A stretch of 64,000 nucleotides of DNA from an uncultured delta proteobacterium (GCA_963790475.1 CAWBOS010000010.1:1248001-1312000), one strand, 5' to 3'. Shown: positions 1,666 through 56,010, numbered from the stretch's first letter. Notes: generated from the sequence alone by a model not told the origin. A program made the numbers and translations.

Positions 1666-1834
1666 CCTAGTTTGAAGGGCTGTTATCATCCCATCCTTCT
1701 CCTGAGAGAAAAGTTTGGGATGGAAGGCCGATACGTCCCGGCACCGGAGCGCTGTTCGGCACTCCAGTTTTTTCATCAAGGCAGGTTCATTTTTCAGCCG
1801 TTCGAAATCCAATTATTCCAGGAGAGGTTTATTA

Positions 1835-3247
1835 ATGTCCAATCATCCACTGGAGGAGATCCTCCATCCGAAATCCATTGCCGTTGTCGGCGCATCCGAT
1901 ACCGGTCGGGGGGGTAGATTTCTTACTCCCCTTCAAGAGCAGGGATACCAGGGTCAAATATATCCTGTGAATCCAAAATACAGCCTGGTCTGCGGGCTGC
2001 CGGCTTATTCCAGGGTCAGGGACATACCTGGGCCGGTGGATTATGTCATCTCTTCCATCCCCGCCCACCAAATTCTGGATCTGGTCGAAGACTGCGGTCA
2101 AAAAGGGGTCAAGGGACTTCATCTTTTCACCGCCCGTTTCAGCGAAACCGGCAGAAAAGAGGCGGCCGATCTGGAGATGGAGATATTAAGGCGGGCCCGG
2201 AAATACGGCCTGCGCATCATCGGGCCGAATTGCATGGGGGTCTATTATCCCAGGGAAGGCATTGCCTTTAACAGCGGCATGCCCAGTGAATCCGGAAAGG
2301 TCGCCTTGATCTCCCAAAGCGGCCAGGTGGTCGGTGAGATGGTCAGTTTCGCCGGTCAGCAAGGGGTTCGATTCAGCAAAGCCATCAGCTACGGCAATGC
2401 CCTGGACTTCAACGAGTGTGATTTTTTGGAATATTTTGCCCAGGACCTGGAGACGGAAGTCATTCTCATGTACATCGAAGGGGTAAGGGACGCCCAAAGG
2501 TTCCCCGCTTCCCTGCGTCAGGCGGCATCGGTCAAACCGGTCCTTATTGTCAAGGGAGGACGGGGCCAGGCCGGAAACCGGGCCACGGTTTCCCACACGG
2601 CCTCTATGGCCGGTTCACAGCAGATTTGGGAGGCCGTGGTCAGACAGGCCGGAGCGATCAGTGTCAAAAATCTTGAAGATATGGTGGACCTGGCCATGGC
2701 TTTTAATTTTCTGCCCCCGGCCACAGGCCGAAAACTGGCGGTCCTCGGTGGAAGCGGCGGCAGCAGCGTCCTGGCTGCCGATCAATGCGAAGAGGCCGGT
2801 TTAGAGGTCATCCCCCTTCCCCAGGATCTACGTGAAAAACTAAAGAAAGCCCACAACCCCATTTGGGACTGGATTGGGAATCCGGCCGATTTTTCTATCT
2901 CCATGGGAGATCATGATCTAGCTTTCCAAATAGGGCAACTCATGGTGGATCATCCGGCCTTTGAGGTAATCATGACCTTTGTTCATGGACCCTGGGGCAG
3001 GCGAACGAAATATTTTTCGACTGAAGATCACCTTCTTCAATATAAATTTGCCATCCAATCCGCCAAACCGACTGTCTTCGTATATCAAGATTTGCGCGGA
3101 CAGGAGAAGGACGATCCGGAATTAGACAGAATAAGGCTGGAAATCAAGGGAAAATTAATTGAAAAGAATCTGGCGGTTTATCCTACCATCAACCGGGCCG
3201 CCAGGGCCCTCAGCGGGTTCATCGGTTACTATGAAAATAGGAAATAA
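1835..3247 (+). CDS. Acyl-CoA synthetase (NDP-forming) alpha-type CoA-binding protein, no ATP-grasp domain
   Basis: HPKSIAVVGAS, IIGPNCMG, SQSG, SHTASMAG phospho-His motif; start moved to ATG 1835 (RBS GGAGAGG) from the ORF-track start at 1715. Confidence 0.88.
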   Translation: MSNHPLEEILHPKSIAVVGASDTGRGGRFLTPLQEQGYQGQIYPVNPKYSLVCGLPAYSRVRDIPGPVDYVISSIPAHQILDLVEDCGQKGVKGLHLFTARFSETGRKEAADLEMEILRRARKYGLRIIGPNCMGVYYPREGIAFNSGMPSESGKVALISQSGQVVGEMVSFAGQQGVRFSKAISYGNALDFNECDFLEYFAQDLETEVILMYIEGVRDAQRFPASLRQAASVKPVLIVKGGRGQAGNRATVSHTASMAGSQQIWEAVVRQAGAISVKNLEDMVDLAMAFNFLPPATGRKLAVLGGSGGSSVLAADQCEEAGLEVIPLPQDLREKLKKAHNPIWDWIGNPADFSISMGDHDLAFQIGQLMVDHPAFEVIMTFVHGPWGRRTKYFSTEDHLLQYKFAIQSAKPTVFVYQDLRGQEKDDPELDRIRLEIKGKLIEKNLAVYPTINRAARALSGFIGYYENRK

Positions 3248-16710: not shown

Positions 16711-17115
16711 ATGACTACACCGGCCAACCAAGGGAAGATTCTAATCTTAGCCACAGACCACTGTGCCTATCCGGGGGCCAACTCGGTCGGGCAGGCCCAT
16801 AGCCCTTACCCGGCTAATACCTATGTGCTCAGGGTGCCTTCCCCGGTGCTCTTTCCAGAAACCTTTTACTTGGATTGTTTTCATAAAGGGATCGGCGGGA
16901 TCATTATCATGTCCTGTGGAACCGAATGCCCTTATCCCGGCGCCTATGAGGTCTTGGCTAAAAGGGTCGACCGGGTTTATTCCATGATGAAGGAGAAGGA
17001 TCTGGATATACGACGGCTTAAGCTTACTGCCATTTGTACGGTCTGCAACCGGGCTTTTCTTAAAGAGGTAAACGAGATGAACAACTTGGTTCAGGAGTTG
17101 GGGGCGATCGGCTAA
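16711..17115 (+). CDS. mvhD: MvhD/FlpD-like hydrogenase iron-sulfur subunit (variant)
   Basis: CAYPGANSVG...YP.N..VLRV, GIIIMSCG.ECPY, I.RL.L pattern. Confidence 0.8.
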   Translation: MTTPANQGKILILATDHCAYPGANSVGQAHSPYPANTYVLRVPSPVLFPETFYLDCFHKGIGGIIIMSCGTECPYPGAYEVLAKRVDRVYSMMKEKDLDIRRLKLTAICTVCNRAFLKEVNEMNNLVQELGAIG

Positions 17116-17118
17116 GAG

Positions 17119-18426
17119 ATGAATAATACTCAGAACCTGAAATTTGATACCTTGATCATCGGCAGTGGTATTGCCGGCCTCCAGGCCGCCCTGGACCTGG
17201 CTGATCAAGGGTTCAAGGTAGCCGTCGTGGAAAAAGACGCCACCATCGGCGGGAAGATGATTCGGCTTTCCAAGGTATTTCCCACCCTGGATTGCGCCAG
17301 TTGTATAACCACCCCAAAAATGGCCGCAGCCGCCCATCATGAAAACATCACCCTCTTCACCTTCTGTGAGTTGAAATCTCTGGATCGTCAAAATGGTCTT
17401 GTTGCAGCTACGGTAACCCAGAAACCCAGGTATGTGGACCCGGATAAATGTATCGGCTGCCGGCAATGCGAATACGAGTGCCCGGTCTATGTTCCGGATG
17501 AGGAACAGGGGGGGTTCAATGCCCGCAAGGCTATCTATATCCCCTTTTCCAATGCCATTCCACAAATCGCTCTCCTCGACCCTGAAAACTGCCTGTTGTG
17601 TGGAAAGTGTGTCAAAATCTGCCCTACTGAAGCCGTAAATTTTTTTCAAGAACCCAAGGACCTTTTTCTTGAGGCTAAAGCCGTTATTGTAACCACCGGT
17701 TTTGAATTAACCCCTTTAGAGGACAAACCGCAATATGGACAAGGGAAGATCCCTAATGTGATCACGGCTCTCCAAATGGAAAGGCTTCTGGCCCCCCATG
17801 GGCCTTATAATCGAGTCTTACGCCCTTCAGACGGCATGGAGCCGGATTCGATCGCCTTTGTCCAGTGCGCCGGTTCAAGAGATAAAAGCATGGGCATCTC
17901 TTATTGTTCCAGAGTCTGTTGTATGTACGCGATTAAGCAGGCCATGCTGCTCTCCGGGGCCTTGCCCTTAGCGGATATTACTATTTATTATATGGACATC
18001 CGGGCCTTTGGAAAGGGCTACGAACAATTTTTTCAGAACGCTCAGGCTATGGGTATCCAATTTGTAAAAGCCAAGGTGTCCATTGTTAACGCAACTGTCG
18101 AGAGCACTGTGTCTGTCCGTTATGAGGCCCAGGATGGCGAGGGAGTGGTCATGGCTGAACATGATCTGGTGGTCCTTTCCCTGGGGATGGTCCCTGGCTG
18201 GAATCCAGGCAACTATAGTAAACTGGATGCCGATTCGGATGGGTTTATCAGAACCATACAACCCAAGATAGCCCCAACCCTGACCGCTCAAGAAGGTTTT
18301 TTCGTGGCCGGTACGGCCGCTGGACCAAAGGATATTGTTGACACTATTGCTGAAGCCGGAGCGGCTGCCATGGAGGCTACCAAGTATTTACTTCGTAATA
18401 ATAAGACGACTCAAATGGCCAAATAA
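17119..18426 (+). CDS. hdrA: Heterodisulfide reductase subunit A-like flavoprotein (short, with inserted ferredoxin domain)
   Basis: IIGSGIAG, KVFPTLDCASC, two CxxCxxCxxxCP motifs, QCAGSRD, YCSRVCCMY, GPKDIVDT. Confidence 0.92.
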   Translation: MNNTQNLKFDTLIIGSGIAGLQAALDLADQGFKVAVVEKDATIGGKMIRLSKVFPTLDCASCITTPKMAAAAHHENITLFTFCELKSLDRQNGLVAATVTQKPRYVDPDKCIGCRQCEYECPVYVPDEEQGGFNARKAIYIPFSNAIPQIALLDPENCLLCGKCVKICPTEAVNFFQEPKDLFLEAKAVIVTTGFELTPLEDKPQYGQGKIPNVITALQMERLLAPHGPYNRVLRPSDGMEPDSIAFVQCAGSRDKSMGISYCSRVCCMYAIKQAMLLSGALPLADITIYYMDIRAFGKGYEQFFQNAQAMGIQFVKAKVSIVNATVESTVSVRYEAQDGEGVVMAEHDLVVLSLGMVPGWNPGNYSKLDADSDGFIRTIQPKIAPTLTAQEGFFVAGTAAGPKDIVDTIAEAGAAAMEATKYLLRNNKTTQMAK

Positions 18427-18468
18427 CGTTTTGAAAAAATTTTCCAACAATCCCTTGGGAGATAGGGA

Positions 18469-20397
18469 ATGACCGAGTCAATAAATAATAAAGCCACAGA
18501 AATCCAAGATCCGAAAGTCGGTGTATATATCTGTCATTGCGGAGGAAATATTTCCGATCATGTGGACATGGAAACCCTTCAACGGAGGACGGAAAAAATC
18601 CCCGGAGTAGCCCTGGCTCGTACCAATATGTTTATGTGTTCAGATCCAGGACAGGAATTGATTATCGAGGATCTTAAAAATGGTTTGGTGGATCGGGTGC
18701 TGGTGGCCTCCTGCGCCCCCAATCTCCACGAGACGACTTTTCGCCAAACCCTTTCTCGAGCAGGAGTCAACCCTTATCTTTACGAACATGCCAATATCCG
18801 AGAACAGGTAAGCTGGGTGCACCACGGTCAAGCCGCTACAGACAAAGCAACCCGGCTCGTCGCCGCCGCCGCAGGTAAGGCTAAAAATCTAAAGCCTTTG
18901 GAACCTCTGCGTGTGAAAGCCAAACAACATGTGACGGTCATTGGTGGGGGTCTGGCCGGATTGCGCTGTGCCAAGGATCTGGCCGATCGAGGTTTCGAGG
19001 TGGTTCTAATTGAAAAGTCTCCTTTTCTGGGAGGGAAGGCCGTGCTCATTGACCGTGTGGCCCCTACGGGAGAAAAGGCGGTTGATTTGGTTTCCGAGCT
19101 GACCACAGCGGTACTGAAAGCCCCCACTATTAAGGTCTTCACCTGCGCTCAAGTAACCGGGTTTGAGGGTTATATAGGCAATTTTCGTCTTAAGATAACC
19201 GCCTCACCCTCGGTTTCAGACGAAGATCGGAAAAAAATTGCCGACACGGCTAAAGACGGCCGCTCCCCTTACCAATGTGATCCTTTCATTGGGGTCTATG
19301 CCAAAGATATCCCCCAAGAGACCGAGGAACTAATCATTGAAACAGGGGTAATCGTGTTGGCAACTGGTTTTAAATCCTATGTCCCGAAAATAGGAGAATA
19401 CGGGTACCAAGAATTTAATAAGGTGATTACCCTGCCTGCCTTTATCCAAAAGTTCGCAGAAAGGTCAAAAAAGGGAAGCTTTCTGGAAATTGATGGTCGG
19501 GAAATACATAATATAGCTCTGATCCACTGTGTGGGCAGTAGACAAATCCCGGGCATACATGAAGAAAATGAATCGGGAGAACTGAATGAATACTGTTCCC
19601 GTATTTGTTGCACCGCTACCCTGCAGGCAGCCCTCCGGATCCGTGAAAATTATCCGGAGACACGCGTCTATGAATTGTATCGGGACATCCGTACCTATGG
19701 GCGGGGACAAGAGGAACTTTATAACCAAGCTTCCAGCGAAGGAGTAGTCTTTTTGCGTTTCAAGGCCGAGGATTCCCCGGTCGTAACCGCTAACGATTCT
19801 TCGAGTCCCTACCCCTTAAGGGTTACGGTAAAGGATACGCTCACCTTTGATGAAGAGGTGGAGGTCCCGGTAGATCTGGTGGTCTTGGCTAACGGCCTGG
19901 AACCGCATCCGATCCCCGACTTGGTTGAGATGATGAAACTCCCTGTTGGGGGAGATCGTTTTTTATTGGAAGTGCATCCCAAACTTCGGCCCGTTGAACT
20001 TTCCATCTTGGGCATCTTTCTGGCCGGGACCTGTCAAGCCCCCATGGATATGGGAGAAGTCTGTAATGCGGCCGGGGCCGCAGCGGTAAAAGCCTCGGCC
20101 CTACTGGCCCGGGGATTTGTGGAAATGGATCCTTTTGTGGCCGAAGTGGATCTTAACAAATGTAAAGGTTCAGGGGCCTGCGTAGAAGCCTGTTTAAATA
20201 AAGGGGCTCTGGAAATGGCCGAAGTGGAAGTTGAAGGTCAAACGGTTTTACGGGCCCGAATATCTCCGGCTTTATGCAAGGGATGTGGGGCTTGTGTGGC
20301 CGTATGTCCGGAAAAGGCCATCAATCTTCAAGGCTGGACCTTGAAACAATATGAAGACATGGTTGATATGATCGTCTCCGATGATCTGATCACCTGA
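18469..20397 (+). CDS. hdrA: Heterodisulfide reductase subunit A-like protein (N-terminal CHCG domain, C-terminal ferredoxin)
   Basis: VGVYICHCGGNI, CSDPGQ, ANIREQVSWVH, VIGGGLAG, HCVGSR, YCSRICC, HPKLRPVE, CKGCGACVAVCP. Confidence 0.93.
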   Translation: MTESINNKATEIQDPKVGVYICHCGGNISDHVDMETLQRRTEKIPGVALARTNMFMCSDPGQELIIEDLKNGLVDRVLVASCAPNLHETTFRQTLSRAGVNPYLYEHANIREQVSWVHHGQAATDKATRLVAAAAGKAKNLKPLEPLRVKAKQHVTVIGGGLAGLRCAKDLADRGFEVVLIEKSPFLGGKAVLIDRVAPTGEKAVDLVSELTTAVLKAPTIKVFTCAQVTGFEGYIGNFRLKITASPSVSDEDRKKIADTAKDGRSPYQCDPFIGVYAKDIPQETEELIIETGVIVLATGFKSYVPKIGEYGYQEFNKVITLPAFIQKFAERSKKGSFLEIDGREIHNIALIHCVGSRQIPGIHEENESGELNEYCSRICCTATLQAALRIRENYPETRVYELYRDIRTYGRGQEELYNQASSEGVVFLRFKAEDSPVVTANDSSSPYPLRVTVKDTLTFDEEVEVPVDLVVLANGLEPHPIPDLVEMMKLPVGGDRFLLEVHPKLRPVELSILGIFLAGTCQAPMDMGEVCNAAGAAAVKASALLARGFVEMDPFVAEVDLNKCKGSGACVEACLNKGALEMAEVEVEGQTVLRARISPALCKGCGACVAVCPEKAINLQGWTLKQYEDMVDMIVSDDLIT

Positions 20398-20414
20398 ACT
20401 TTTAGAGGGACTCG

Positions 20415-20717
20415 ATGTCTACAAAACAGAAAGAAGGATTGGTCGATCAGGGGGCTTTGAAAATACTTCGGGAGAAAAGAAAAGAGACGATCGCCCGAGT
20501 CTCTGCCATCATCAAACGACAGCGTAAGGATATCCAAGCCTTAAAAACCCTTTTACGAGAGGGAGAACGAACCATCCCGCAACTTGCAGAAATAATGAAC
20601 CGGCCCTCTTCAGAGGTTTTCTGGTACGTGGCCGCTCTTAAAAAATACGGAGAGATCTTCGAAGGGGAAAAGGTCGGGAGCTACTTCCTTTACAGGTTGG
20701 CTGACAAGTCCGAGTAA
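20415..20717 (+). CDS. Winged helix-turn-helix-like protein
   Basis: TIPQLAE.M......VFWYVAALKKYGEI pattern followed by a beta-wing. Confidence 0.75.
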   Translation: MSTKQKEGLVDQGALKILREKRKETIARVSAIIKRQRKDIQALKTLLREGERTIPQLAEIMNRPSSEVFWYVAALKKYGEIFEGEKVGSYFLYRLADKSE

Positions 20718-20742
20718 GAAGAATGATGTTAAGAAAGAAACC

Positions 20743-21060
20743 ATGACCATGATAACCGTTCATCCTGACTTTGCTAAGGAATTGAAACATTTTGGCGTAG
20801 ATCACGCATTGGATTGTTTCAATTGTGGCACTTGTACGGCCATCTGCCCCCTGATTTTTGATCATTTCCCGAGAAGATTAATCCGCTACATCCAAATAGG
20901 GGCCAAGGATAAGATAATGGAAAATCCCAAGGAATTATGGCGCTGCCTCCATTGCGGGCTTTGCACCCGGACCTGCCCGAGAGAAGCCGATCCCGGCGAG
21001 GTAATCCTGGGATTAAAACGCTATGTAGTAAACTACTGGAGGAAATCCAGACATGTATAA
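20743..21060 (+). CDS. HdrC-like 4Fe-4S dicluster protein
   Basis: CFNCGTCTAICP and WRCLHCGLCTRTCPR. Confidence 0.88.
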   Translation: MTMITVHPDFAKELKHFGVDHALDCFNCGTCTAICPLIFDHFPRRLIRYIQIGAKDKIMENPKELWRCLHCGLCTRTCPREADPGEVILGLKRYVVNYWRKSRHV

Positions 21061-21988
21061 CCCAAGGGATATCATAGATATATTAGCTGGGAATGTCAGA
21101 AAAACCAGAAGTCCTTTCGCAATCCCCAATTTTCTAGTGAACCGGTGGTGGAAAACACTTAATCTTCCTAAAAAAGGGGATGCTCTTCTTTACACGGGGA
21201 TGATGTATCAACTGGTCCCCTATATAAAAAAAACAACTCAGTATTTGGAAATGTTTGAAGACCGTAAACCGGCCGATTGGGTAGGCTTAGGCCGATATCA
21301 GCCCAAACGCCTTTCCGGGATCGGTATCGCCATGATCACCCCAGGAGTTGAAAAGCGAAAAGCCAACCAAGTCTTGCAAGATATTTCCTTAATTCTGGGC
21401 AAGTCCCGGGTAGACTTTTATTATGAACCCCGGTTGGATTATTACAGCGGCATATTGCTTTACGATTTAGGAGATCAAGAAAGCTTTATTCAACACGCCC
21501 AATTTGTTGCCGGTAAACTCCAAAGGGCTGGGGTCAAAAAAATAATCACCGTGGACCCTCATACCACTTATGCCCTGAAGGTCCTTTATCCAAAATACAC
21601 AGGGATAAGTTTTGATGTCCAATCCTACATTGAACTGATCAATTTCGAGTCGAACCAAGGAGGTGTTCAGGTTACTCTTCACGATCCCTGTTTTTACGGA
21701 AGGTATCTGGAGCTTTCCGATGCCCCCCGGGAGGCCTTAAAAAAGCAGGGGATCGAATGTCTCGAAGTGAGAAATGCCAGGAGTTTTACCAACTGTTGCG
21801 GAGGCCCGGCGGAGTCTATTTCTCCTAAACTTTCCAGGGAAGTTCTGGACCGTAGGGTTGAGGAATTACGGTTTACCGGGGCACCTATTATTGCCATGTG
21901 CCCTATCTGCCTGGGCAATCTCCAGAGGTCGGGTGCCCAAGTGGAGGACCTGTCCCAGGTGCTTGCTCGTTGTGCAATATCAGCTTAA
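21053..21988 (+). CDS. CCG-domain (HdrB/GlpC-like) Fe-S protein
   Basis: TLHDPCFYGR, TNCCGGP, AMCPIC; the first CCG repeat is degenerate (YYSG, TVDPH). Confidence 0.85.
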   Translation: MYNPRDIIDILAGNVRKTRSPFAIPNFLVNRWWKTLNLPKKGDALLYTGMMYQLVPYIKKTTQYLEMFEDRKPADWVGLGRYQPKRLSGIGIAMITPGVEKRKANQVLQDISLILGKSRVDFYYEPRLDYYSGILLYDLGDQESFIQHAQFVAGKLQRAGVKKIITVDPHTTYALKVLYPKYTGISFDVQSYIELINFESNQGGVQVTLHDPCFYGRYLELSDAPREALKKQGIECLEVRNARSFTNCCGGPAESISPKLSREVLDRRVEELRFTGAPIIAMCPICLGNLQRSGAQVEDLSQVLARCAISA

Positions 21989-22054
21989 AGGCGAAGAGGA
22001 TTGTCCTCTCTGCTTCAAGATAAAAAATAACAAAAAATTTGAAGGGAGAATAAA

Positions 22055-22429
22055 ATGTCGGAAAAAGAAGAAATGGTTATGTTTATGTGTACCCATGCAG
22101 GAGAAAACCCTGAAAAAGCGGCCATACCCTTTGTTATGGGCAGCGCCGCCTTGGCTATGGACGTCAAGGCCCTGGTGGTTCTACAAGAAGAAGGGGTATA
22201 TCTGGCCCAAAAAGGATACGCCGAACATATGACTAAACCGGGAGGGTTTGAAGCCTTGCCGAAGTTAATCGCCGATTTTTTGGAATTAGGTGGGGAACTG
22301 AAGGTCTGTGTCCCTTGTATCAAGGCCAGAAATATCAGCGAATCCGACCTGATCGATAAGGCCCAAACCACGGCTGCCGGTCAACTCATTACCGATTCTC
22401 TTAGGGCTGACTCTGTCTTTACCTACTAG
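22055..22429 (+). CDS. DsrE/DsrF-like family protein
   Basis: THAGENPEKA.IPFVMG..ALA, LQEEGVYLA, KVCVPC...R. Confidence 0.88.
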   Translation: MSEKEEMVMFMCTHAGENPEKAAIPFVMGSAALAMDVKALVVLQEEGVYLAQKGYAEHMTKPGGFEALPKLIADFLELGGELKVCVPCIKARNISESDLIDKAQTTAAGQLITDSLRADSVFTY

Positions 22430-22581: not shown

Positions 22582-22923
22582 GTGGCTTCCTCGCGTTATC
22601 AATCCATTGCCGACCGGCTTTTGGAAAAGCGGGAGAAAGCGGACCCCCAAGCGAGAAAGATGCGGGAATGGCGCAATGTAGCGGACAGCCGGATACAATC
22701 CACCTCGGCCGGAATCGCTTATCTATTACTCATACTCCATCAGATGGGACTTGGGGCCACCTGGATGACCGGCCCTATGCAGGCTACGGGAGCCATTCAG
22801 AAAATCCTCAAGGTAAAGCCCGGATGGGAGATAGTCACCTTCATCCCTGTGGGCTATCCCGATGATCAGCCAAGGCCAAGAAGCCGCAAGCCGGTCAACG
22901 AGGTCACGGAAGCAATCAGATAG
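22582..22923 (+). pseudogene. Nitroreductase C-terminal fragment
   Basis: QSTSAGIAYLLL.LHQMGLGATWMTGP, FIPVGYP, RKPVNEV; the N-terminal RRSIR/APS region is absent. Confidence 0.7.
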
Positions 22924-25475: not shown

Positions 25476-25829
25476 TCAAACATCTCGAGGTTCGGTGAGC
25501 AATTTGAAGCCGTCAAGAATCTCTGTTAACCTATTTTTTGAGACCTGTCCGATTTTATCAACGAGATCACTCTTGTTAACTGTGAAGATTTGAGAAATGT
25601 TAACTACGCTTTTTCGGGGGAGATTGGCTTCACCTTTATTCAGCAGGACATTACCGGGAGCCTTGGCCCGGTGAAGGTTCGTGGTAAGGGAACAAACGAC
25701 CACAGTATTGATTTGACTGGTGTTAAATAGATTGTTTTGAATGACGAGATGGGGATGCCGATATCCCGGTTCCGATCCCTTAGGATCAGAAAGGTCTAGC
25801 CAATAGATTTCACCTTGCTTAATCACCAA
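25476..25829 (-). CDS. mazF: Type II TA toxin, PemK/MazF family endoribonuclease
   Basis: QGEIYWLDL..P.GSEPG.RHP.LVIQ, SVVNISQIFTV.K. Confidence 0.92.
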   Translation of the reverse strand: MVIKQGEIYWLDLSDPKGSEPGYRHPHLVIQNNLFNTSQINTVVVCSLTTNLHRAKAPGNVLLNKGEANLPRKSVVNISQIFTVNKSDLVDKIGQVSKNRLTEILDGFKLLTEPRDV

Positions 25830-26080
25830 GACTCTTTCTCAATCAATTTTTTTTGTTTGCCGCGCATGGATTTTAAGATTCTTCTTTCTTCTTCTTCAGG
25901 AAAGTCTTTATAAGCCTCATTCAACCGGGTCAGCAAAGCCTGATTTTCTTGTTTTTTAACATAGTCTTGCACAGCCAGGGTGAATACCTTGCTCCGGGAA
26001 ATATGCAAGTTATTGGCTAATTTATTAATTTTTAAAAATAATTCTTCATTAAGGGATATAGCTGTTTTGACACCGGCCAT
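25823..26080 (-). CDS. Type II TA antitoxin (RHH, ChpI-like)
   Basis: KTAISL.EELF...LA..L.ISRS.VF..AV; overlaps the toxin start. Confidence 0.88.
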   Translation of the reverse strand: MAGVKTAISLNEELFLKINKLANNLHISRSKVFTLAVQDYVKKQENQALLTRLNEAYKDFPEEEERRILKSMRGKQKKLIEKESW

Positions 26081-26246: not shown

Positions 26247-26576
26247 TTATCCGTTCTTTAAGGAATCGATCATTTCCACCAACTGAGTTTCATTCAATCC
26301 TCTGCCAATAATCCCATCCAGCCGTTTTGCAATCTTACCATTCTTAAAGAAGATCACCGTTGGTACTACCGCGATAGAATAGTTTTCTTTGCAACTTTTA
26401 ATTTCATCCGTTAAAACACGACATAAATTATTCTGGGTATTCTCGCCATATTTTTCGAAAATCGGCAAAAATCTCTGCGAGTAAGGACACCAAGAGGCAT
26501 AAAAAAGAACCAATAGGCTTGGGCACTCGCTCAACCTCTTATCAAATTCGGATTCGCTTTCAATTATTTTACTCAT
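26247..26576 (-). CDS. Thioredoxin family protein (CxxS)
   Basis: LVLFYASWCPYS, YSIAVVPTVIFFKNGK; probable start MSKIIE. Confidence 0.85.
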   Translation of the reverse strand: MSKIIESESEFDKRLSECPSLLVLFYASWCPYSQRFLPIFEKYGENTQNNLCRVLTDEIKSCKENYSIAVVPTVIFFKNGKIAKRLDGIIGRGLNETQLVEMIDSLKNG

Positions 26577-26606
26577 CCTAACTCCTTTAGAACCCATCCA
26601 AAGATG

Positions 26607-27338
26607 TTATATCTCAACTTTACTTCTCCGCTGAAAATCCATAGCCGCTTGCAGGTAGGCGATTATCAGACGGTGCGGGCTGTCGAGGCTTGAAGAAAGC
26701 TGCGGCAGAAAAAGTGTGGCCAAGAAAAAACGATGATCGGGCATCTCTACTATTCTGCCTTCTCCTTTGGAGTCCACCCCGGATATTTTGAGTTCCCCGG
26801 CGCCGATTTTATCCCTATATTGAGGATTCAGGCCATAATTGCAACGGAATTCCTCAACTATTTCTTCTTGCCCATACACCCGGTGGGCCAGGGTGCCTGG
26901 CACGATTTTTATAGTCAGCGCCTGATCGACAAGCGAACAGCTTAATTTGCTGATCACCAGGTTTGCTGCCTTCGGAGCGGATTCTTCGTGCTCCGCATCA
27001 GGGATCCCCAACACATTCCGTGCATACTCTACCAGAGTATGTTGAAACCCTCCTCAGGTTCCCACAAATGGCCAGTCGTTTTCGCGGGCGAATCTAATGG
27101 CCCTCAGGGCCCCGTTCATGCTCTGGTAAGGGCTGCCCGGAGAACACCAAAGGGCGTCAAAATGCTTCAACACCATTTCAGCGCCTTCATCATCCAGCGA
27201 GGGGGTCGGCAGCCAGGAGCAATCCACAATCAGGGACACGGCCCTGGCGGCATGACTTAGGGCGTCATTAGTGGCCGTGTGATACGGGGATTTCGGATCA
27301 AAATCCCCGATGATCCCAACGCGAACGGTCCGGTCCAT
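26607..27338 (-). CDS. CTP synthase C-terminal-related glutamine amidotransferase, probable selenoprotein (Sec at TGA 27054-27056)
   Basis: The two track ORFs are in frame across one TGA: PFVGT-[TGA]-GGFQH.LVEYARNVLG; also PGSPY, CNYG, HRFFLATLFLPQL. Confidence 0.85.
27023..27041 (-). promoter_or_regulatory. Putative bacterial SECIS hairpin
   Basis: Minus strand CATACTCT-GGT-AGAGTATG, a perfect 8 bp stem starting after a 12 nt spacer 3' of the in-frame TGA. Confidence 0.75.
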
Positions 27339-27411
27339 ACCCTATTTCTCCTGACCTGGTGTAGGTAGATATTTTGTCCAAAGAAGATCCACCTGACTAA
27401 TTAATATTTTC

Positions 27412-27501
27412 TCACACTCTTTCATGTTTAGTGGATGAGGATACATAAATCGGGGATTTCCGAAGTTGCAACGCATGCTTCTGTAAAAAATATCGAGTAT
27501 A
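27412..27501 (-). pseudogene. Detached 3' end of the GNAT gene interrupted by IS1380
   Basis: Reads YTRYFLQKH..., in frame with ...FPEGY from 29044-29437 once the IS and one TATA copy are removed. Confidence 0.75.
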
Positions 27502-29043
27502 CCCGGATGTTGCATAAAAAAAGTGCAAATTTTGTAAAGACCGATCAGGCGGCCTTTTTAAAAGCATCCAGATACACAAAAAAGTCTCTTTGGACTGATT
27601 CATTTCCATTAAGCGTCAGGGTTAGTTGCTTTTGGGGTAACGTTAATCTCCCTGCTCTTTGAATAATCAGATGGCGTAAAGTTTTTAATTCTTCAAAACA
27701 CCATAGAGGGGCTCTTTTCTCGGTCGTCCCTCTTTCCCTTGGACGAGCCGCCATTTGTAATTCGCGGGTTAAATTGTGGGCCATGATTGCAGCCATCGTA
27801 TAAAGCTGGTTTCCGCCCCAGCGACGAACAGGGATATAATCCATTTGAGCTTGAGATTTCAATTCTCCAAAGAGTCCTTCCTGGTCGGCGCGCCCATTAT
27901 GGAACATCAATACCTTCTTAGCCTTGACCCGCTTGTTGGTTACGATGACTTTAAATTCGTAGCCTTCCTCCCGAGGAACGAATAAGTCCAGTTGAATCGG
28001 ACCTCGGAAAGCCAGGGAGACTCGTTGACGGATGCACAGGAAACGAAATCGGTTATCCCATTTCTTGGGTTTCCAAAACGTTTCAAACCAAGACCATCGG
28101 TCATCCAGCCGCTTCCAACGTTTTCGCTCCTGGATCATTTGTTTCCATTCGGCAAAACGTTCAAAAGGCACTGACAGAGTAAACTCAACCCCTTGTTCTT
28201 CTAAAAACGGTACGAGGTTATCGTTAAAAAAGGCGCTGTCCAGTCGGGCTTCTATGATTACGCCGGGAAGGGCTTCCTTCAAGAGGCGTAGGCATTGTTC
28301 GATAAATTCCCGTGCTCCATTAGAGTCGTGGACATTTCCGGAACGAAACAGGGTATCGAAAACCTGCCCGGTTTGGGCAATGGTGCAGAACAAAGGATAA
28401 TAACTGCGGGCTCCTTTTTTCTTTTTGTTATACCCCACAGCGGTTCCCTCCGCTCGACGCTGACAGGTCCAAAGAACGGATCCGTCAAAATCCAGTGTCA
28501 GACGAAAAGGAGCCAACTTTTGCAGTCTGGCAATAACCTGGTTCCGGCATAGTTCCCGAACTTTTTCGATGGCCGAAATATCAATCGTTCGCAAAGCGCG
28601 AGAAACCGTTGAGACCTCTGGCAGCCTTTTTAACCCTAATAAACGCTTGATCAAGGGATCATCTTGGTAATAATCCAGATCCCTCAGCTTACGGAAACCC
28701 AGTAAAAGGTGAAAGATCAAAAGAAGCATAATGAGGTGATGACCAAATATCTCGGAAACTTTTAAATGGTCAAAACATTTCTTGAGTTGTGCTTTGAGAT
28801 TCAGGTTCTGGAGCAGTGGCTGATAAATAACTAGCCCGGCAAATGAGGTCAATTGTTGATTTTCAAACTTGATGGCTGGAATTTTAAACATTCGACTAAA
28901 AATATTCCTTTTGCTATACTTCACCTTAGGTGGCCTCCTGTATCGGTTCTTTTGAGATGTGCTAATTTCACTTTAGCCAATACTGGAGCCACCTTCAAGC
29001 ATTTTCATGGTGTTTTATGCACTTTTATTATGCAACTATGAGG
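27502..29043 (-). mobile_element. IS1380 family insertion sequence, apparently complete
   Basis: Terminal IRs CCCGGATGTTGCATAAAAAAAGTGCA / CCTCATAGTTGCATAATAAAAGTGCA; TATA direct repeats at 27498-27501 and 29044-29047. Confidence 0.9.
27545..28924 (-). CDS. IS1380 family transposase
   Basis: LTSFAGL, LTLDFDGS, SYYPL, RSGNVHD, RLDSAFF, HNGRADQEG.FGELK. Confidence 0.95.
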   Translation of the reverse strand: MKYSKRNIFSRMFKIPAIKFENQQLTSFAGLVIYQPLLQNLNLKAQLKKCFDHLKVSEIFGHHLIMLLLIFHLLLGFRKLRDLDYYQDDPLIKRLLGLKRLPEVSTVSRALRTIDISAIEKVRELCRNQVIARLQKLAPFRLTLDFDGSVLWTCQRRAEGTAVGYNKKKKGARSYYPLFCTIAQTGQVFDTLFRSGNVHDSNGAREFIEQCLRLLKEALPGVIIEARLDSAFFNDNLVPFLEEQGVEFTLSVPFERFAEWKQMIQERKRWKRLDDRWSWFETFWKPKKWDNRFRFLCIRQRVSLAFRGPIQLDLFVPREEGYEFKVIVTNKRVKAKKVLMFHNGRADQEGLFGELKSQAQMDYIPVRRWGGNQLYTMAAIMAHNLTRELQMAARPRERGTTEKRAPLWCFEELKTLRHLIIQRAGRLTLPQKQLTLTLNGNESVQRDFFVYLDAFKKAA

Positions 29044-29437
29044 TATAGCCTTCAGGAAATCCTTCCGGGGACCCAAACACTTGATACCCCAGCTTCTGAC
29101 AAAATCCAAGCGCCTGAAATTCAAACGTGTCCAGATGCGCGTGTCGGCAACCACAATTGACGACTTCCTGCTCTGCCCGCGCCACAAGTTCCCTGCCATA
29201 ACCCCGACTCCGAATAGACTCCGCCAGCCACAAATGACTGATGAAGAGCCAGCCCCAATGAGTATATCCGTACAAGCCACCCATTATCTCACCTTGTTCA
29301 TCACCGATGAAAATGGCAAGGTGTTGCCAATTTTCTTTTCCCGCCTGAGCGTCATTGTAAGAAACCAAATTTCGAGCCAGAGTGCAAATATCGGCTTCGG
29401 AAGCCTGATCGTCCATCGAAATCATGTAATCTGCCAT
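29044..29437 (-). pseudogene. GNAT N-acetyltransferase, truncated by IS1380
   Basis: GGLYG.T.WGWL.I..LW, RSRGYG, LDTFEFQALGF.QKLGY. Confidence 0.85.
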
Positions 29438-35864: not shown

Positions 35865-37346
35865 TCAGCCCACCTGCCTGTCCTCTCGTCGAGTATAATA
35901 CCGTGAGACTTGGGCTATGGCCCGGAAGGCGTCGGTGAGGGTCTCAAAGGTCAAAATGCCTTTTTCAAAAAAGACCCTGCCGGCCCTGCGCCGAACCTCC
36001 TCCAGATCCAGATCCTCCACCTCCCGTCGGCTGTTGGGTAAAACCAAAACAACCGGCTTGTCGGTTTTTCTTTCGACCTCTTCTATGGCCTTTATAAGAC
36101 CGCGGTAAGGCGTGGCCTCATCCAGGGTCATTTCCCCCAGGCGTATAATGAACTTGTAGATGTAAAGTAACTGAATCAATATCTGCAGGTCGATCGATTT
36201 CTCTTCCCCGCTTTTTAAGAGGACCTCTTTCAAAATTTCCGGGGGAACTTCGGGGTTGGCGGCATCGACCGGGTTGGTGGCGCTGGAGCCTGGTTTCGGG
36301 AGAATGGCCATGATCTTTTTCTGGGTCTCAGTCGCCAGCAAAGGCAGATCGATGCCGAAGGACTCGGCCGTGTCACTGGCTGCGACGCCGAGGGCGCCCC
36401 CGCCCCCGACCACGGCCACTCCCCGGACAGGCCTTTCAGAAAGCTGCACAAAAGCCAGAGCGGCCTGGGCCATTTCCAAGGAGTTGTTCACCTGAACGGC
36501 ATTAGCCTGGCGCATCATCGATTCCCAGATCTGCCGGCTGCCTCCCAGAGAAGCGGTATGACTGACTACCGCCCGGCTTCCTGCCTGGGAAAGGCCCCCT
36601 TTATAGATAATGACCGGTTTTTTAGCCGTGACCTCCTTAAGGACCTTGGAAAAAGCCCGGCCGTCCTCCACGCCTTCCATATACATGCAGATGACCTTGG
36701 TTCCCGGATCAACCCCCAGATACTGCAGCAATTCCGTTTCCCTGAGATCGACCCCGTTTCCGAAACTGACCACCTTGCTGAAGGTCAACCCCAAGGAGCT
36801 TCCGTTCATGACAAATTCTCCGGCCATGCCTCCGCTCTGGGCCAAAAAGGCAACGGGACCGCTTTCCCGGGAAAAATCCAATCCGGGCAGTATGGTCAAT
36901 CCGCCGGCCGGGCAATAGATACCGAAACAATTGGGACCCACCACGCGTATCCCTTTGCGGGAGATTTTTTTAATCTCCTCCTCTAAGGCCCGGCCTTCGG
37001 GAGTGCCCAATTCCTTAAAGCCGGCAGATAAAATCTCAGCCCCGATCACCCCTTTTTGTCGGCAGGCTTCCAGGGCTTTAGGAACCAGTGGGGCCGGGAC
37101 GGCGATAATCGCCAAATCCAAATCTCCGGGAATTTCTTCAACGGTTTTATGGATTTTCAATCCGGAAATGGTGCCTCCTTTGGGATTAACCGGACATATT
37201 TCACCCTGATATCCGAAGTGGAGCAGGGTCTCGATCGTCCGGCTGCCGAATCCCAGACTTCCGGCCGAAACCCCGATGACCGCAAGCCTTTTCGGATGAA
37301 AAATCCTTTCCAGTTGTGTATGTTCGACTATTGTCTTATCCGTCAT
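35865..37346 (-). CDS. Acyl-CoA synthetase (NDP-forming) alpha-type CoA-binding protein, no ATP-grasp domain
   Basis: FHPKRLAVIGVS, VGPNCFG, AQSGG, SHTASLGG, NPVD. Confidence 0.88.
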   Translation of the reverse strand: MTDKTIVEHTQLERIFHPKRLAVIGVSAGSLGFGSRTIETLLHFGYQGEICPVNPKGGTISGLKIHKTVEEIPGDLDLAIIAVPAPLVPKALEACRQKGVIGAEILSAGFKELGTPEGRALEEEIKKISRKGIRVVGPNCFGIYCPAGGLTILPGLDFSRESGPVAFLAQSGGMAGEFVMNGSSLGLTFSKVVSFGNGVDLRETELLQYLGVDPGTKVICMYMEGVEDGRAFSKVLKEVTAKKPVIIYKGGLSQAGSRAVVSHTASLGGSRQIWESMMRQANAVQVNNSLEMAQAALAFVQLSERPVRGVAVVGGGGALGVAASDTAESFGIDLPLLATETQKKIMAILPKPGSSATNPVDAANPEVPPEILKEVLLKSGEEKSIDLQILIQLLYIYKFIIRLGEMTLDEATPYRGLIKAIEEVERKTDKPVVLVLPNSRREVEDLDLEEVRRRAGRVFFEKGILTFETLTDAFRAIAQVSRYYTRREDRQVG

Positions 37347-37971: not shown

Positions 37972-38592
37972 CTACTGCTTAACCTTGGCCACTCCAAGAT
38001 CAAAAGCCTTCAGGTTGATATCCAGGGTTCCGGCCGGCAGGCTTTCTTGTATCACCGCCTGGAAATCCTCACGGGCCATCGGCAAAGATCCGGTCCCGTA
38101 AAGGGCCCCGATCATAATGATGTTTCCTAAAATAGGATTGCCCATTTTTAAGGCTTCATCCGTGGCCTCAATGAACCAGGCCCTGGAAGACAAATCTTTG
38201 ATGGAATCCTGAATCTCCTCCGAAGTCGGATAAACGAGTTCCCCGGAAATGACTCCCACCGGATAGATGGGACGGGTATTGGTCAAAACCGCAACCTCCG
38301 GATTCCCATAGCTCATTAAAACCCTGATGGCTTCAATCGGCTCGAGGGTGACGACGATATCGGCCTTTCCTTTGGGTATTTGCGGACTCCAGGTGGCATC
38401 GGCCGAGACGCGGATGTGGCTCATCACCGAACCGCCCCGTTGGGAGGCCCCGAAAGTTTCCCCGATGGTCACCTGAAAGCCTTTGCGAACCAGCATATTG
38501 GAAAGTATCCTGGAGGCCATGACGTTGCCTTGGCCCCCGACCCCGGTGATAATGATATTGAACGGATCTTTGGGTAACTGAGTTGTTTCCAT
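37972..38592 (-). CDS. iorB: Indolepyruvate:ferredoxin oxidoreductase subunit beta
   Basis: ITGVGGQG, ETFGASQRGGSVMSHIR, INLKAF; start METTQ. Confidence 0.92.
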   Translation of the reverse strand: METTQLPKDPFNIIITGVGGQGNVMASRILSNMLVRKGFQVTIGETFGASQRGGSVMSHIRVSADATWSPQIPKGKADIVVTLEPIEAIRVLMSYGNPEVAVLTNTRPIYPVGVISGELVYPTSEEIQDSIKDLSSRAWFIEATDEALKMGNPILGNIIMIGALYGTGSLPMAREDFQAVIQESLPAGTLDINLKAFDLGVAKVKQ

Positions 38593-38596
38593 GTTT

Positions 38597-40534
38597 TTAG
38601 GCCGCCTCCTCTCTGATGATGGCCGTGGTCGGGCAGATATAAGAACAAACGCCGCAACCGGCACAGATGACCTCGTCGACCACGGCGGTCTTTTTCTCTT
38701 TGTCCCAGAACAGTCCGGGGCATCGTAAAATCCGAGTACACAGCCGGTTACAGCCGCAATCCTCCCCCTTACACCGGGTCTCATCCACGTGGACCTTAAA
38801 GTATTTCTTGGCCTTCCTTTCCGGAGATAAGGCACATTTTTGACGAAGGATCAAAACTTTGGCCCCTTCTTGATCGGCCATCAGTTGGTTGAGTGTTTCC
38901 TGGGTCTCTTGCAGATTGAAAGGGTCCCTGATTTCCACCCTGGCGCCTAAAGACCGACAAATAGCGGCGATATCGACCTGGGGCATGGCCTCTCCCATGG
39001 CATTGACCTGAAGGCCGGGGTGGGACTGAAAACCGGTCATAGCCGTACCACTGTTGTCCAGAACCACCAGGGTGATGTTGGATTTGTGGTGCACGGCATT
39101 GATCAGGGCCGGAATAACGGCGTGATAGAAGGTCGAATCCCCGGACACGGCCAGCACCGGCTGATCCAGGCCGAATTGGCCCAGCTTCCCGAACCCGCTG
39201 GCCACACCGGTTCCCGAGCCCATGGAGTGCACTGTTTTAAGAGTTCTGAATCCTGTTGTTCCCAGGGCCATGGTATAGCAGCCGATGTCACCGCAGACAA
39301 AACCTTTGCGGTTGTCCATCTGCAGAGCATTATGGATACTCCAGAATGAGGCCCGGTGCGGACAACCGGGGCAGAAGGTCTGTTCTCTGGCCGGAACTTT
39401 GGCAAAATTAAGAAGTTTGGCCTTGTCCTCGTATTCCCTGGACATACCCTGATATTCGATTCCCATGATCTTGGCCAGTGCGGAAACGACAAAATCCGGA
39501 TTCAGCTCCCCGGTCATAGGGATGTCTCCGCTGTTCTTTCCGTAAAAGGTCTTGGCCCCGATGTCTTTGGCCTGTTCGGCGGCGATGATCTTGATATTTT
39601 CCTCCAGAAAGGGCAGGACCTCTTCGATGAACAGAATCTTGTCGGTCAGAGACAGATATTTTTTAATCAGTTTGGGAGGCAGAGGCCAGGTGGTGCCTAT
39701 TTTTAATAAGCCTACCCGGTCTTTCAATCCCAGCAAATGAATGGCCTCCCTACTGTAAAGGGTACAGGCACTGCAGGTAATCAATAGAAGCTCGGGTTTT
39801 TCCGGGCCCACATAGGTATTAAAGGGACTGTCTTCAAAGAGATCCCGGACCTTTTTGATTTTCTCCTGTTGCTGGCCATGTTTGTAACCCACCGGGGCGC
39901 TGATGACCAATCCTTCCATGGGATCGAGAACGAACCCATCGTACTTAAACTCGGCCCGATGTTCCGTCCCGGGCAGTTTACCCAGAGCGACATTCCCGCT
40001 GGCATGAGACATACGGGTCACACTTCGGACCACCACCAGGCTGCGGATTGTTTCCGACAATTCGAAAGCCCACTTGGTCATATCCTTGGCTTCCTGAAAA
40101 TCACCCGGTTCCAGAAGGGGGATTTCCACCATCCTGGCAAAATGCCTCGATTCCCCTTCATTGACACTGGACAAGGCCCCGGGATCATCGCAGGTGACCA
40201 GGACCATGCCTCCCCGGGTTCCGGAACCGGCCAGATGGAGAAGAAAATCAGAAGCCACATTGACCCCGTTCTGCTTCATGACACATAATGATCTGAGCTG
40301 GGCGAAGGAGGCAGCGGCGGCGACCTCCAGGGCCACTTTTTCGTTGGTCGACCACTCCACATACAGATTTCTTTCCTTGGCCGCTTTGGCTAAATTTTCT
40401 ATAATTTCCGAAGAGGGCGTTCCCGGATATCCGCTGGCCACACTTATTCCGGCCTCCAACGCACCCCGGGCAATGGCTTCGTTGCCCATATACAAAACCT
40501 GTCGCCCCTCATCCTGATCCGTCAATCTTGACAT
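38597..40534 (-). CDS. iorA: Indolepyruvate:ferredoxin oxidoreductase subunit alpha
   Basis: GNEAIARG, GYPGTPSSE, NEKVALE, FCPGCPH, GDIGCY, GDSTF.H, C-terminal ferredoxin. Confidence 0.95.
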   Translation of the reverse strand: MSRLTDQDEGRQVLYMGNEAIARGALEAGISVASGYPGTPSSEIIENLAKAAKERNLYVEWSTNEKVALEVAAAASFAQLRSLCVMKQNGVNVASDFLLHLAGSGTRGGMVLVTCDDPGALSSVNEGESRHFARMVEIPLLEPGDFQEAKDMTKWAFELSETIRSLVVVRSVTRMSHASGNVALGKLPGTEHRAEFKYDGFVLDPMEGLVISAPVGYKHGQQQEKIKKVRDLFEDSPFNTYVGPEKPELLLITCSACTLYSREAIHLLGLKDRVGLLKIGTTWPLPPKLIKKYLSLTDKILFIEEVLPFLEENIKIIAAEQAKDIGAKTFYGKNSGDIPMTGELNPDFVVSALAKIMGIEYQGMSREYEDKAKLLNFAKVPAREQTFCPGCPHRASFWSIHNALQMDNRKGFVCGDIGCYTMALGTTGFRTLKTVHSMGSGTGVASGFGKLGQFGLDQPVLAVSGDSTFYHAVIPALINAVHHKSNITLVVLDNSGTAMTGFQSHPGLQVNAMGEAMPQVDIAAICRSLGARVEIRDPFNLQETQETLNQLMADQEGAKVLILRQKCALSPERKAKKYFKVHVDETRCKGEDCGCNRLCTRILRCPGLFWDKEKKTAVVDEVICAGCGVCSYICPTTAIIREEAA

Positions 40535-55197: not shown

Positions 55198-56010
55198 ATG
55201 TCATCCCGTAATCTTGGGCCCCTACTGCTTAAAGTCACTGATATAAATATGTTTTTTGGAAAAGTGGCCGCCCTTTCCGGAGTCGGTTTTGACGTCCGGG
55301 AAGGGGAGATCCATTCCATTATCGGGCCCAACGGGGCCGGCAAAACCGTTCTGCTGAATTGCATCAACGGATTATACCATCCTCAAGAAGGAGAAATTTC
55401 CTATAAAGAGCAGGATATCACCCGGCTTAGACCGCATAACCGGGCCAAACTCGGTATTTCGCGAACCTTTCAGAAGATCGAATTATTTCGGGGGATGACG
55501 GTGCTCGATAACATCCGTTTGGGCCGTCATATCCATTTGAAATCCGGCATTCTCAGCGGATCCGTTTATTTTGGGAAAACAGCCCGTGAAGAAATAAAGA
55601 CCCGGGAGTTTATCGAAGAGGAAATCATCGATCTGCTCGAAATTGAATCCATCCGCAATAAAACGGTCGGCATGTTGCCTTACGGCCTGCAAAAAAGGGT
55701 CGAGTTGGGCCGGGCCCTGGCCTTGAATCCCAAACTTTTGCTTTTGGATGAACCCCTGGCCGGATTGAATCTGGAAGAAGTGGAAGACATGGCCCGTTTT
55801 ATCCTGGATATCAATCTGGAAAAACGCTGGAACGTGACTTGTATCCTGGTGGAACACGACATGGGGGTGGTTATGGACATCTCGGATCGAATCTCGGTAC
55901 TCAGCTTCGGCAATAAAATTACCACCGGCACCCCCAGTGAAGTTCAGAACCATCCTCAGGTGATTGATGCCTATCTGGGCGAGGAGGACTTATATGCCAC
56001 CAGGAGATAA
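55198..56010 (+). CDS. livG: ABC transporter ATP-binding protein (LivG-like)
   Basis: GPNGAGKT, LPYGLQKRVELGRAL, LLLDEP, VEHDM. Confidence 0.92.
   Translation: MSSRNLGPLLLKVTDINMFFGKVAALSGVGFDVREGEIHSIIGPNGAGKTVLLNCINGLYHPQEGEISYKEQDITRLRPHNRAKLGISRTFQKIELFRGMTVLDNIRLGRHIHLKSGILSGSVYFGKTAREEIKTREFIEEEIIDLLEIESIRNKTVGMLPYGLQKRVELGRALALNPKLLLLDEPLAGLNLEEVEDMARFILDINLEKRWNVTCILVEHDMGVVMDISDRISVLSFGNKITTGTPSEVQNHPQVIDAYLGEEDLYATRR

Follow-up and report, generated by a model that had tools for sequence, protein, structure and literature searches.

A probable NF004836-family selenoprotein with a predicted selenocysteine at the nucleophile elbow of a CTP synthase glutaminase-like fold in an uncultured delta proteobacterium

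The window analysed here is a stretch of 64,000 nucleotides (64 kb) from an uncultured delta proteobacterium (GCA_963790475.1 CAWBOS010000010.1:1248001-1312000). On its minus strand lies a gene of family NF004836 that is interrupted by a single in-frame TGA, together with a hairpin just downstream of the TGA, a thioredoxin-fold gene, an insertion sequence and an acetyltransferase gene. The features of the locus, with the evidence for each, are:

26607..27338 (-): predicted NF004836 selenoprotein gene, encoding a stand-alone homolog of the CTP synthase glutaminase domain; 243 codons plus stop (translation with TGA = U, NCBIfam, AF2, Foldseek)
27054..27056 (-): in-frame TGA, codon 95, at the nucleophile-elbow position and predicted to be read as selenocysteine (alignment to the CTP synthase catalytic Cys)
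27023..27041 (-): SECIS-type hairpin with an 8-bp stem (CATACTCT/AGAGTATG) and a 3-nt loop, GGT (folding, conservation, bSECIS constraints)
27347..27352 (-): putative Shine-Dalgarno-like AGGAGA, a few nucleotides 5' of the ATG at 27338 (sequence inspection)
26247..26597 (-): gene, 9 nt past the end of the predicted selenoprotein gene, for a thioredoxin-fold protein with the monothiol motif WCPYS (Pfam Thioredoxin, E = 4.8e-14)
27498..29047 (-): IS1380-family insertion sequence with its transposase at 28924..27545 (NF033539, 223.7 bits versus a cutoff of 180)
29036..29437 (-): GNAT acetyltransferase gene (Pfam Acetyltransf_1, E = 2.1e-12)

Translation table 11 splits the frame into an ORF of 94 aa (27338..27054) and another of 135 aa that begins at a GTG (27014..26607), which the initial annotation had read as a single frame divided by one TGA. 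Translation of 27338..26607 (-) with TGA as U agrees with that reading, giving 243 residues, uninterrupted except for a single U at codon 95. The sequence around the predicted selenocysteine is PFVGT-U-GGFQHTLVEYARNVLG (over a longer stretch, NDWPFVGT-U-GGFQHTLVEYARNVLGIPD) and contains the elbow motif G-x-U/C-x-G as G93-T94-U95-G96-G97. Beyond the TGA the frame remains open and retains all of the invariant columns of the family, and the closest database protein to the 243-residue product is 70% identical. TGA serves as an ordinary stop in 10 of the 47 family-supported ORFs of the window; thus, the code has not been reassigned genome-wide.

The insertion sequence lies directly upstream of the predicted selenoprotein gene, between it and the GNAT gene, and is bounded by imperfect terminal inverted repeats of 30 nt (27498-27527 and 29018-29047; 80% complementary), with its right arm overlapping the 3' end of the GNAT ORF. 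If the element were absent, the GNAT gene would lie approximately 160 bp upstream of the predicted selenoprotein gene. On the other side, just downstream of the thioredoxin-like gene, are an ORF for a MazF/PemK-type toxin (25829..25476 (-), Pfam E = 1.3e-26) and a small ORF with no family match (26080..25823 (-)) that overlaps it by a few bases, an arrangement typical of type II toxin-antitoxin genes.

Elsewhere in the window, a plus-strand cluster (16711-22429) comprises MvhD/FlpD (16711-17115), two HdrA-like flavoproteins (17119-18426 and 18469-20397), a small HTH ORF, a 4Fe-4S dicluster ORF (20743-21060), an HdrD/LdhH-like ORF (21053-21988) and DsrE (22055-22429). Although some organisms have HdrA and MvhD as selenoproteins, all members of the cluster here are Cys forms and lack an in-frame TGA. 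An ORF of 113 aa (22582-22923 (+)) aligns with the nitroreductase family profile over no more than its C-terminal third (115-167 of 167) and is probably truncated or frameshifted. The overlapping ORFs 55964-57049 and 57018-57935 (+) match the two halves of a FadD11-type fatty acid-CoA ligase (model positions 21-301 and 312-584), and this split or frameshifted gene sits inside a cluster for an ABC transporter of the branched-chain amino acid type. There are two paralogous ADP-forming acetyl-CoA synthetase-like genes (1715-3247 and 35865-37346), as well as genes for the alpha and beta subunits of indolepyruvate:ferredoxin oxidoreductase (37972-40534), of which the beta ORF was probably called from too early a start, the listed one (38835) overlapping the alpha ORF by approximately 240 nt.

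The 243-residue product matches NCBIfam family NF004836 over its full length (residues 5-232 to model positions 1-227 of 228) with a score of 339.6 bits against a cutoff of 260. This family carries the label (seleno)protein in NCBIfam, in agreement with the initial annotation. True CTP synthase models match with their C-terminal halves only and with scores far below their cutoffs (for TIGR00337, model positions 289-526 and 136 bits against 462.75), the product having no N-terminal synthetase (amidoligase) domain, and Pfam finds a weak match to class I GATase (28 bits). An AlphaFold (AF2) model built from 120 homologs has a pLDDT of 95.9 and a pTM of 0.93, and the best Foldseek matches of this predicted structure are the glutaminase domains of CTP synthases, with a TM-score of approximately 0.90 and, for the PyrG structures 3nva, 1vco and 1s1m, an identity of approximately 27-30%. 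In sequence alignments, the counterpart of U95 in the CTP synthases 3nva and 1vco is their catalytic Cys, in accord with the initial annotation, which had placed the TGA exactly at the nucleophilic Cys of class I GATases and CTP synthases. DJ-1/PfpI and gamma-glutamyl hydrolase/PuuD-type proteins, which have a class I GATase-like fold, are also stand-alone proteins with a nucleophile-elbow Cys, which is oxidation-sensitive in some DJ-1 members; both groups keep a His or Glu partner, and the window protein has no Pfam or NCBIfam match to either.

The codon homologous to the TGA was examined across relatives of the gene, as the initial annotation had recommended. One scan of representative genomes confirmed 578 of 600 candidate stretches, and among the best 80 loci, which were kept, the codon is TGA in 34 and TGC or TGT in 46; the nearest of these 80 to the window gene is 62% identical. 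In the 120 best database homologs, column 95 is occupied by Cys in 111, Trp in seven, Leu in one and a gap in one, the gap being the window's own 135-aa fragment; we interpret the Trp and Leu residues as probable instances of TGA that gene callers translated under another code. By the labels of their metagenome-assembled genomes, the TGA forms span Thermodesulfobacteriota, Myxococcota or "delta proteobacterium", Acidobacteriota, Chloroflexota, Actinomycetota, Bacillota, Rokubacteria and Methylomirabilota. On a quick maximum-likelihood tree (in which row L011 has an artefactually long branch that stems from its extraction) they cluster, with four changes between TGA and Cys against a mean of 26.5 after shuffling, and none of 500 shuffles was that low; the window gene falls within a group of 17 rows that are all TGA forms. 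Comparisons between TGA and Cys forms are accordingly non-independent phylogenetically, the TGA forms being confined to a few clades of this tree.

The perfect hairpin with a GGT loop that the initial annotation had placed 12 nt after the TGA is indeed present: a 12-nt spacer (GGAGGGTTTCAA) leads from the TGA to the first arm (CATACTCT, 27041..27034), followed by the loop (27033..27031), which begins 20 nt from the TGA, and the second arm (AGAGTATG, 27030..27023), with eight perfect pairs. Folded in isolation, the 25-nt hairpin has an energy of -8.5 kcal/mol against a mean of -2.67 for its shuffles (z = -3.05; 2 of 200 shuffles equal it), whereas the lowest-energy structure of a 48-nt piece is a different, extended one that is peculiar to the window (-12.3 kcal/mol, z = -1.87). 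Single-sequence folding was rejected as proof of the element because the minimum-energy fold of the 48-nt piece differs from the hairpin and because the GC-rich relatives fold no better than their shuffles; thus, it is the comparative data that are decisive.

Comparison of the 35 TGA genes (the 34 loci and the window gene) with the 46 Cys genes shows that the hairpin tracks the TGA. All eight pairs are present in the same register in 26 of the 35 TGA genes, with six of eight in one further TGA gene, but in none of the 46 Cys genes, which do not exceed six of eight; the minimum free energy of nucleotides 14-36 is -7.5 kcal/mol or lower in 28 of 35 TGA genes versus 1 of 46 Cys genes (means of -8.74 and -2.41). 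The contrast in hairpins has a Fisher p of 6e-14 when kinship is ignored. Third codon positions in the stem are frozen throughout the 26 perfect hairpins (CTG in 26/26, GAG in 26/26, GTA or TTA, GCT or ACT), whereas the same codons vary freely in the Cys genes, where many codons are used. Because the stem sequence is nearly invariant, classical covariation is weak: one pair shows a double change, in two sequences, which shuffles often match, and one stem pair shows G-U/A-U/G-C variation.

A second type of hairpin occurs in eight TGA genes of Rokubacteria and Methylomirabilota (L043, L052, L059, L062, L064, L070, L075 and L076), in the same codons at approximately nucleotides 14-39 after the TGA, with a GC-rich stem of 5-7 bp, a G-first loop (GUCGA) and an apex offset by 2 nt. 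On the quick tree, this Rokubacteria/Methylomirabilota clade groups with two Cys forms of Acidimicrobiales-type Actinomycetota.

The consensus model for bacterial SECIS elements (bSECIS), credited to Zhang and Gladyshev in the summary given by a review (PMC13188914), calls for a loop of 3-9 nt with G in its first two positions, a stem of 4-16 bp, a spacing of 16-37 nt and a minimum free energy of -7.5 kcal/mol or lower. By the values in that summary, the window hairpin, with its GGU loop, 8 bp, 20-nt spacing and -8.5 kcal/mol, lies within all of these limits; what had been called SECIS-like from the one sequence both tracks the TGA and fits the model. The family element shares with bacterial SECIS elements the position of the stem-loop, in the coding region right after the UGA, and a 3-nt loop beginning with GG or GU; it differs in that its primary sequence is unusually conserved across phyla, and it looks as if this SECIS was inherited or transferred along with the gene.

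During translation, the UGA at codon 95 would be read as selenocysteine on the signal of the 8-bp, GGU-looped SECIS hairpin in codons 100-105, and the reading of this hairpin would need SelB and Sec-tRNA(Sec). Within the 64-kb window, selA, selB and selD were not found by an NCBIfam scan that covered 43 of the 55 ORFs with a length of 150 aa or more (the other 12 overlap longer ORFs), and there is no tRNA, no Rfam match and no second convincing read-through gene. A search for tRNA-Sec at the 34 TGA loci was uninformative, as it returned no tRNAs of any kind. By its SecDF homologs, with 84-86% identity to proteins of named metagenome-assembled genomes, the organism falls close to Desulfobacca in the Thermodesulfobacteriota.

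The failure to find Sec machinery or another selenoprotein gene in the window would fit a TGA that is a plain stop, whether in a nonsense pseudogene, between two small genes of 94 and 135 aa or through a sequencing error, and local decay is conceivable next to an insertion sequence that lies directly upstream. Against such a stop, the TGA is common to 34 of 80 independent assemblies from several phyla, is co-conserved with the hairpin and is followed by an intact, conserved frame; a Shine-Dalgarno-like sequence precedes the gene, and the GTG of the 135-aa ORF lies in the region of the hairpin, with no ribosome-binding site noted there. A nonsense mutation or a sequencing error is therefore very unlikely, and we give a plain stop in any of its forms hardly any weight. 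The initial annotation had allowed for these outcomes should close relatives lack both the TGA and the hairpin; instead, the TGA recurs in 34 of the 80 loci and the hairpin in 26 of the 35 TGA genes. This recurrence, the lack of the hairpin in all 46 Cys genes, the frozen synonymous sites and the fit to the bSECIS model together indicate, by sequence comparison, that the locus is a genuine selenoprotein gene and not a pseudogene or a sequencing error. We consider it highly probable that the gene is a functional selenoprotein gene and a further member of NF004836, and infer that UGA95 is decoded as selenocysteine in a 243-residue protein that stands alone and folds like the glutaminase domain of CTP synthase.

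The initial annotation had supposed that the family might not be new. It is not new, having already been published as a predicted selenoprotein: it appears as 'Glutamine amidotransferase (COG0504, PyrG)' of Desulfosediminicola ganghwensis among the predictions of deep-Sep in 2025 (PMC12013277), and a 2026 review lists it with the motif GxUxG (PMC13188914). With the known NF004836 selenoprotein the window gene shares the full-length match, the G-T-U-G-G motif, the coexistence of TGA and Cys forms and the SECIS-like hairpin right downstream; it differs in nothing essential and is another member. Our literature searches found no functional study of the family, and the passages on it in the two papers assign it no function.

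A profile search of 1.84 billion cluster representatives gave 8917 matches at E <= 1e-3 and 762 at E <= 1e-30, and conservation was assessed in the best 150 representatives, which are diverse. The counts at the positions of interest, in the numbering of the window protein, are:

C95 (the position of U95): 146/150 representatives
C134: 138/150 representatives
C166: 144/150 representatives
C65: 51/150 representatives; 11/35 Sec forms
Q99: 146/150 representatives
E104: 148/150 representatives
E119: 133/150 representatives
H20: 124/150 representatives
H100: 120/150 representatives
H117: 117/150 representatives
Triad-His position: Q in 66, V in 53, L in 12 and never H (n = 150)
Triad-Glu position: Q in 83, E in 45 (n = 150)

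Set against the glutaminase domain of CTP synthase PyrG, the family has the nucleophile at the same elbow and keeps two residues of the substrate pocket: Q99 and E119 align with the glutamine-binding Gln of the CxGxQ motif and Glu of the ANSTE segment. In CTP synthase, these two residues contact glutamine. The differences lie in the remainder of the active site. The HPE of CTP synthases aligns with L211-P212-Q213 of the window protein, the FLPQ that the initial annotation had remarked upon in place of the usual H-x-E, and the loss extends to the whole family, in which HPE has become (V/L/Q)-P-(Q/E). RHRHRY aligns with E-F-R-C-N-Y and has become x-x-C-N-(F/Y), the Arg of the RHRY loop not being conserved; in the oxyanion-hole loop, PGGFG or PGFG aligns with P67-G68-S69-P70 (P in 132/150, G in 112/150, with Ser for the second Gly) and has become PGSPY. 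The family lacks the synthetase domain, adds C134, C166 and H100, and in a large subclade replaces the nucleophilic Cys with selenocysteine. With the triad His and Glu replaced family-wide, save for a minority that retains E at the Glu position, the alignments indicate that the NF004836 protein is not a canonical glutaminase.

Gene neighbourhoods and domain fusions were examined for further indications of function. The initial annotation was right that a gene for a CxxS thioredoxin immediately follows the TGA-containing gene, but this is not a conserved partner: tblastn finds the thioredoxin neighbour in only two of the 80 loci, adjacent in neither. The thioredoxin-fold ORF of the window scores below every NCBIfam cutoff, is probably co-transcribed with the predicted selenoprotein gene and may have its real start at the second ATG, which is preceded by AAGGAG. 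The largest cluster of neighbours spans eight of the 80 loci, and the Pfam matches of 65 close same-strand neighbours are heterogeneous, with three GNAT and three DinB-family proteins among them; on these results and the thioredoxin count, a conserved operon was rejected. Among the 23 long forms that were scanned, six join a GNAT domain to the family domain, four of them (P0274, P0301, P0380 and P0245) at the C-terminal end and two (P0311 and P0318) at the N-terminal end; the GNAT domains of P0311 and P0380 are 50% identical although they sit at opposite ends of the protein. Single fusions join the family domain to methyltransferase, DinB_2, DJ-1/PfpI (P0244), ankyrin, transglutaminase-like and Cass2/GyrI-like domains. 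Given how common GNAT domains are, their association with the family is a lead and no proof.

Pairs of Sec and Cys forms are typical of redox cysteines. We tentatively propose a redox-active Sec/Cys95 because Sec and Cys forms pair at this column, the acid-base residues have been lost and two additional cysteines are invariant, and consider this quite possible. Sec/Cys95 would be a redox-active nucleophile paired with the near-invariant C166 and/or C134, and the resulting selenenylsulfide or disulfide chemistry would be reset by a thiol reductant, for which the adjacent thioredoxin-fold protein is a possible candidate; as substrate we envisage a small molecule that continues to use the Gln99/Glu119 pocket kept by the family, and we would expect a functional link to a GNAT acetyltransferase. 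Some observations stand against redox chemistry. C65, which topology would place near U95, occurs in so few of the Sec forms and representatives (see the counts above) that a general role for it as the resolving Cys was rejected; the thioredoxin gene is no conserved neighbour; and Q99, E119 and the P-G loop would suit an acyl-transfer enzyme equally well.

Such an acyl-transfer enzyme would be an amidase, a gamma-glutamyl-type hydrolase or an acyl/thioester transferase, in which a selenoester or thioester arises from attack of Sec/Cys95 on a carbonyl, the lost His-Glu is made up for by H100 or by the selenol's low pKa, and the product amine or acyl group is exchanged with a GNAT acetyltransferase. 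The nucleophile elbow, P67 and G68 of the P-G loop, Q99 and E119 are all kept, and H100 is present in most representatives. GNAT domains are fused at either end of the family domain and encoded by same-strand neighbours in three of the 80 loci, as also in the window if the insertion sequence is discounted; however, GNAT is very common and the association concerns a minority of members. Further against acyl transfer, the general base and the orienting Glu are by our account absent from every sequence examined (the residues at the triad-Glu position being as counted above), the RHRY Arg is not conserved, and Sec/Cys pairs typify redox cysteines. We know of no established bacterial Sec hydrolase. 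On balance, we regard acyl transfer as the main alternative to redox chemistry, albeit a rather doubtful one.

In formate dehydrogenase and [NiFeSe] hydrogenase, Sec is a metal ligand, and the glutaminase scaffold could have become a metalloprotein, with a metal or an Fe-S cluster coordinated by Sec/Cys95, C134, C166 and perhaps one of the conserved His residues. The three near-invariant cysteines (in 146, 138 and 144 of 150) and the histidines H20, H100 and H117 could supply ligands. This is improbable, as the protein has no CxxC-type motif, no match to a metal-binding family in Pfam or NCBIfam, and no structural matches in the fold search other than CTP synthase glutaminase domains.

Taking the protein and its associations together, the family may represent a repurposed glutaminase scaffold, in which the selenol or thiol at the elbow is retained, the His-Glu pair is lost, C134 and C166 are newly fixed and the pathway is shared with GNAT acetyltransferases; as a composite, we consider this conceivable and somewhat unlikely.

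Because standard gene callers break the recoded gene into fragments of 94 and 135 aa, its correct annotation matters, and it offers a clean, checkable example of UGA recoding. The family to which it belongs is widespread, as the 8917 cluster representatives attest, and alternates between its Cys and Sec forms in no fewer than seven phyla, with the GC-rich hairpin as a second SECIS solution within one protein family. In their passages on the family, neither PMC12013277 nor PMC13188914 mentions that the triad has been lost throughout, that three cysteines are conserved, that the synonymous sites of the SECIS are frozen and a second form of it exists, or that the family is associated with GNAT. 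Selenocysteine at a hydrolase-type elbow without the acid-base residues poses a concrete, testable biochemical question, and work on it can be guided by the absence of the triad across the family, the trio of conserved cysteines, the frozen-site SECIS and the GNAT fusions. If the repurposing of the scaffold is true, the family would provide the first acyl-transfer enzyme that depends on Sec or, alternatively, thiol/selenol oxidoreductases of a new class on the class I GATase fold.
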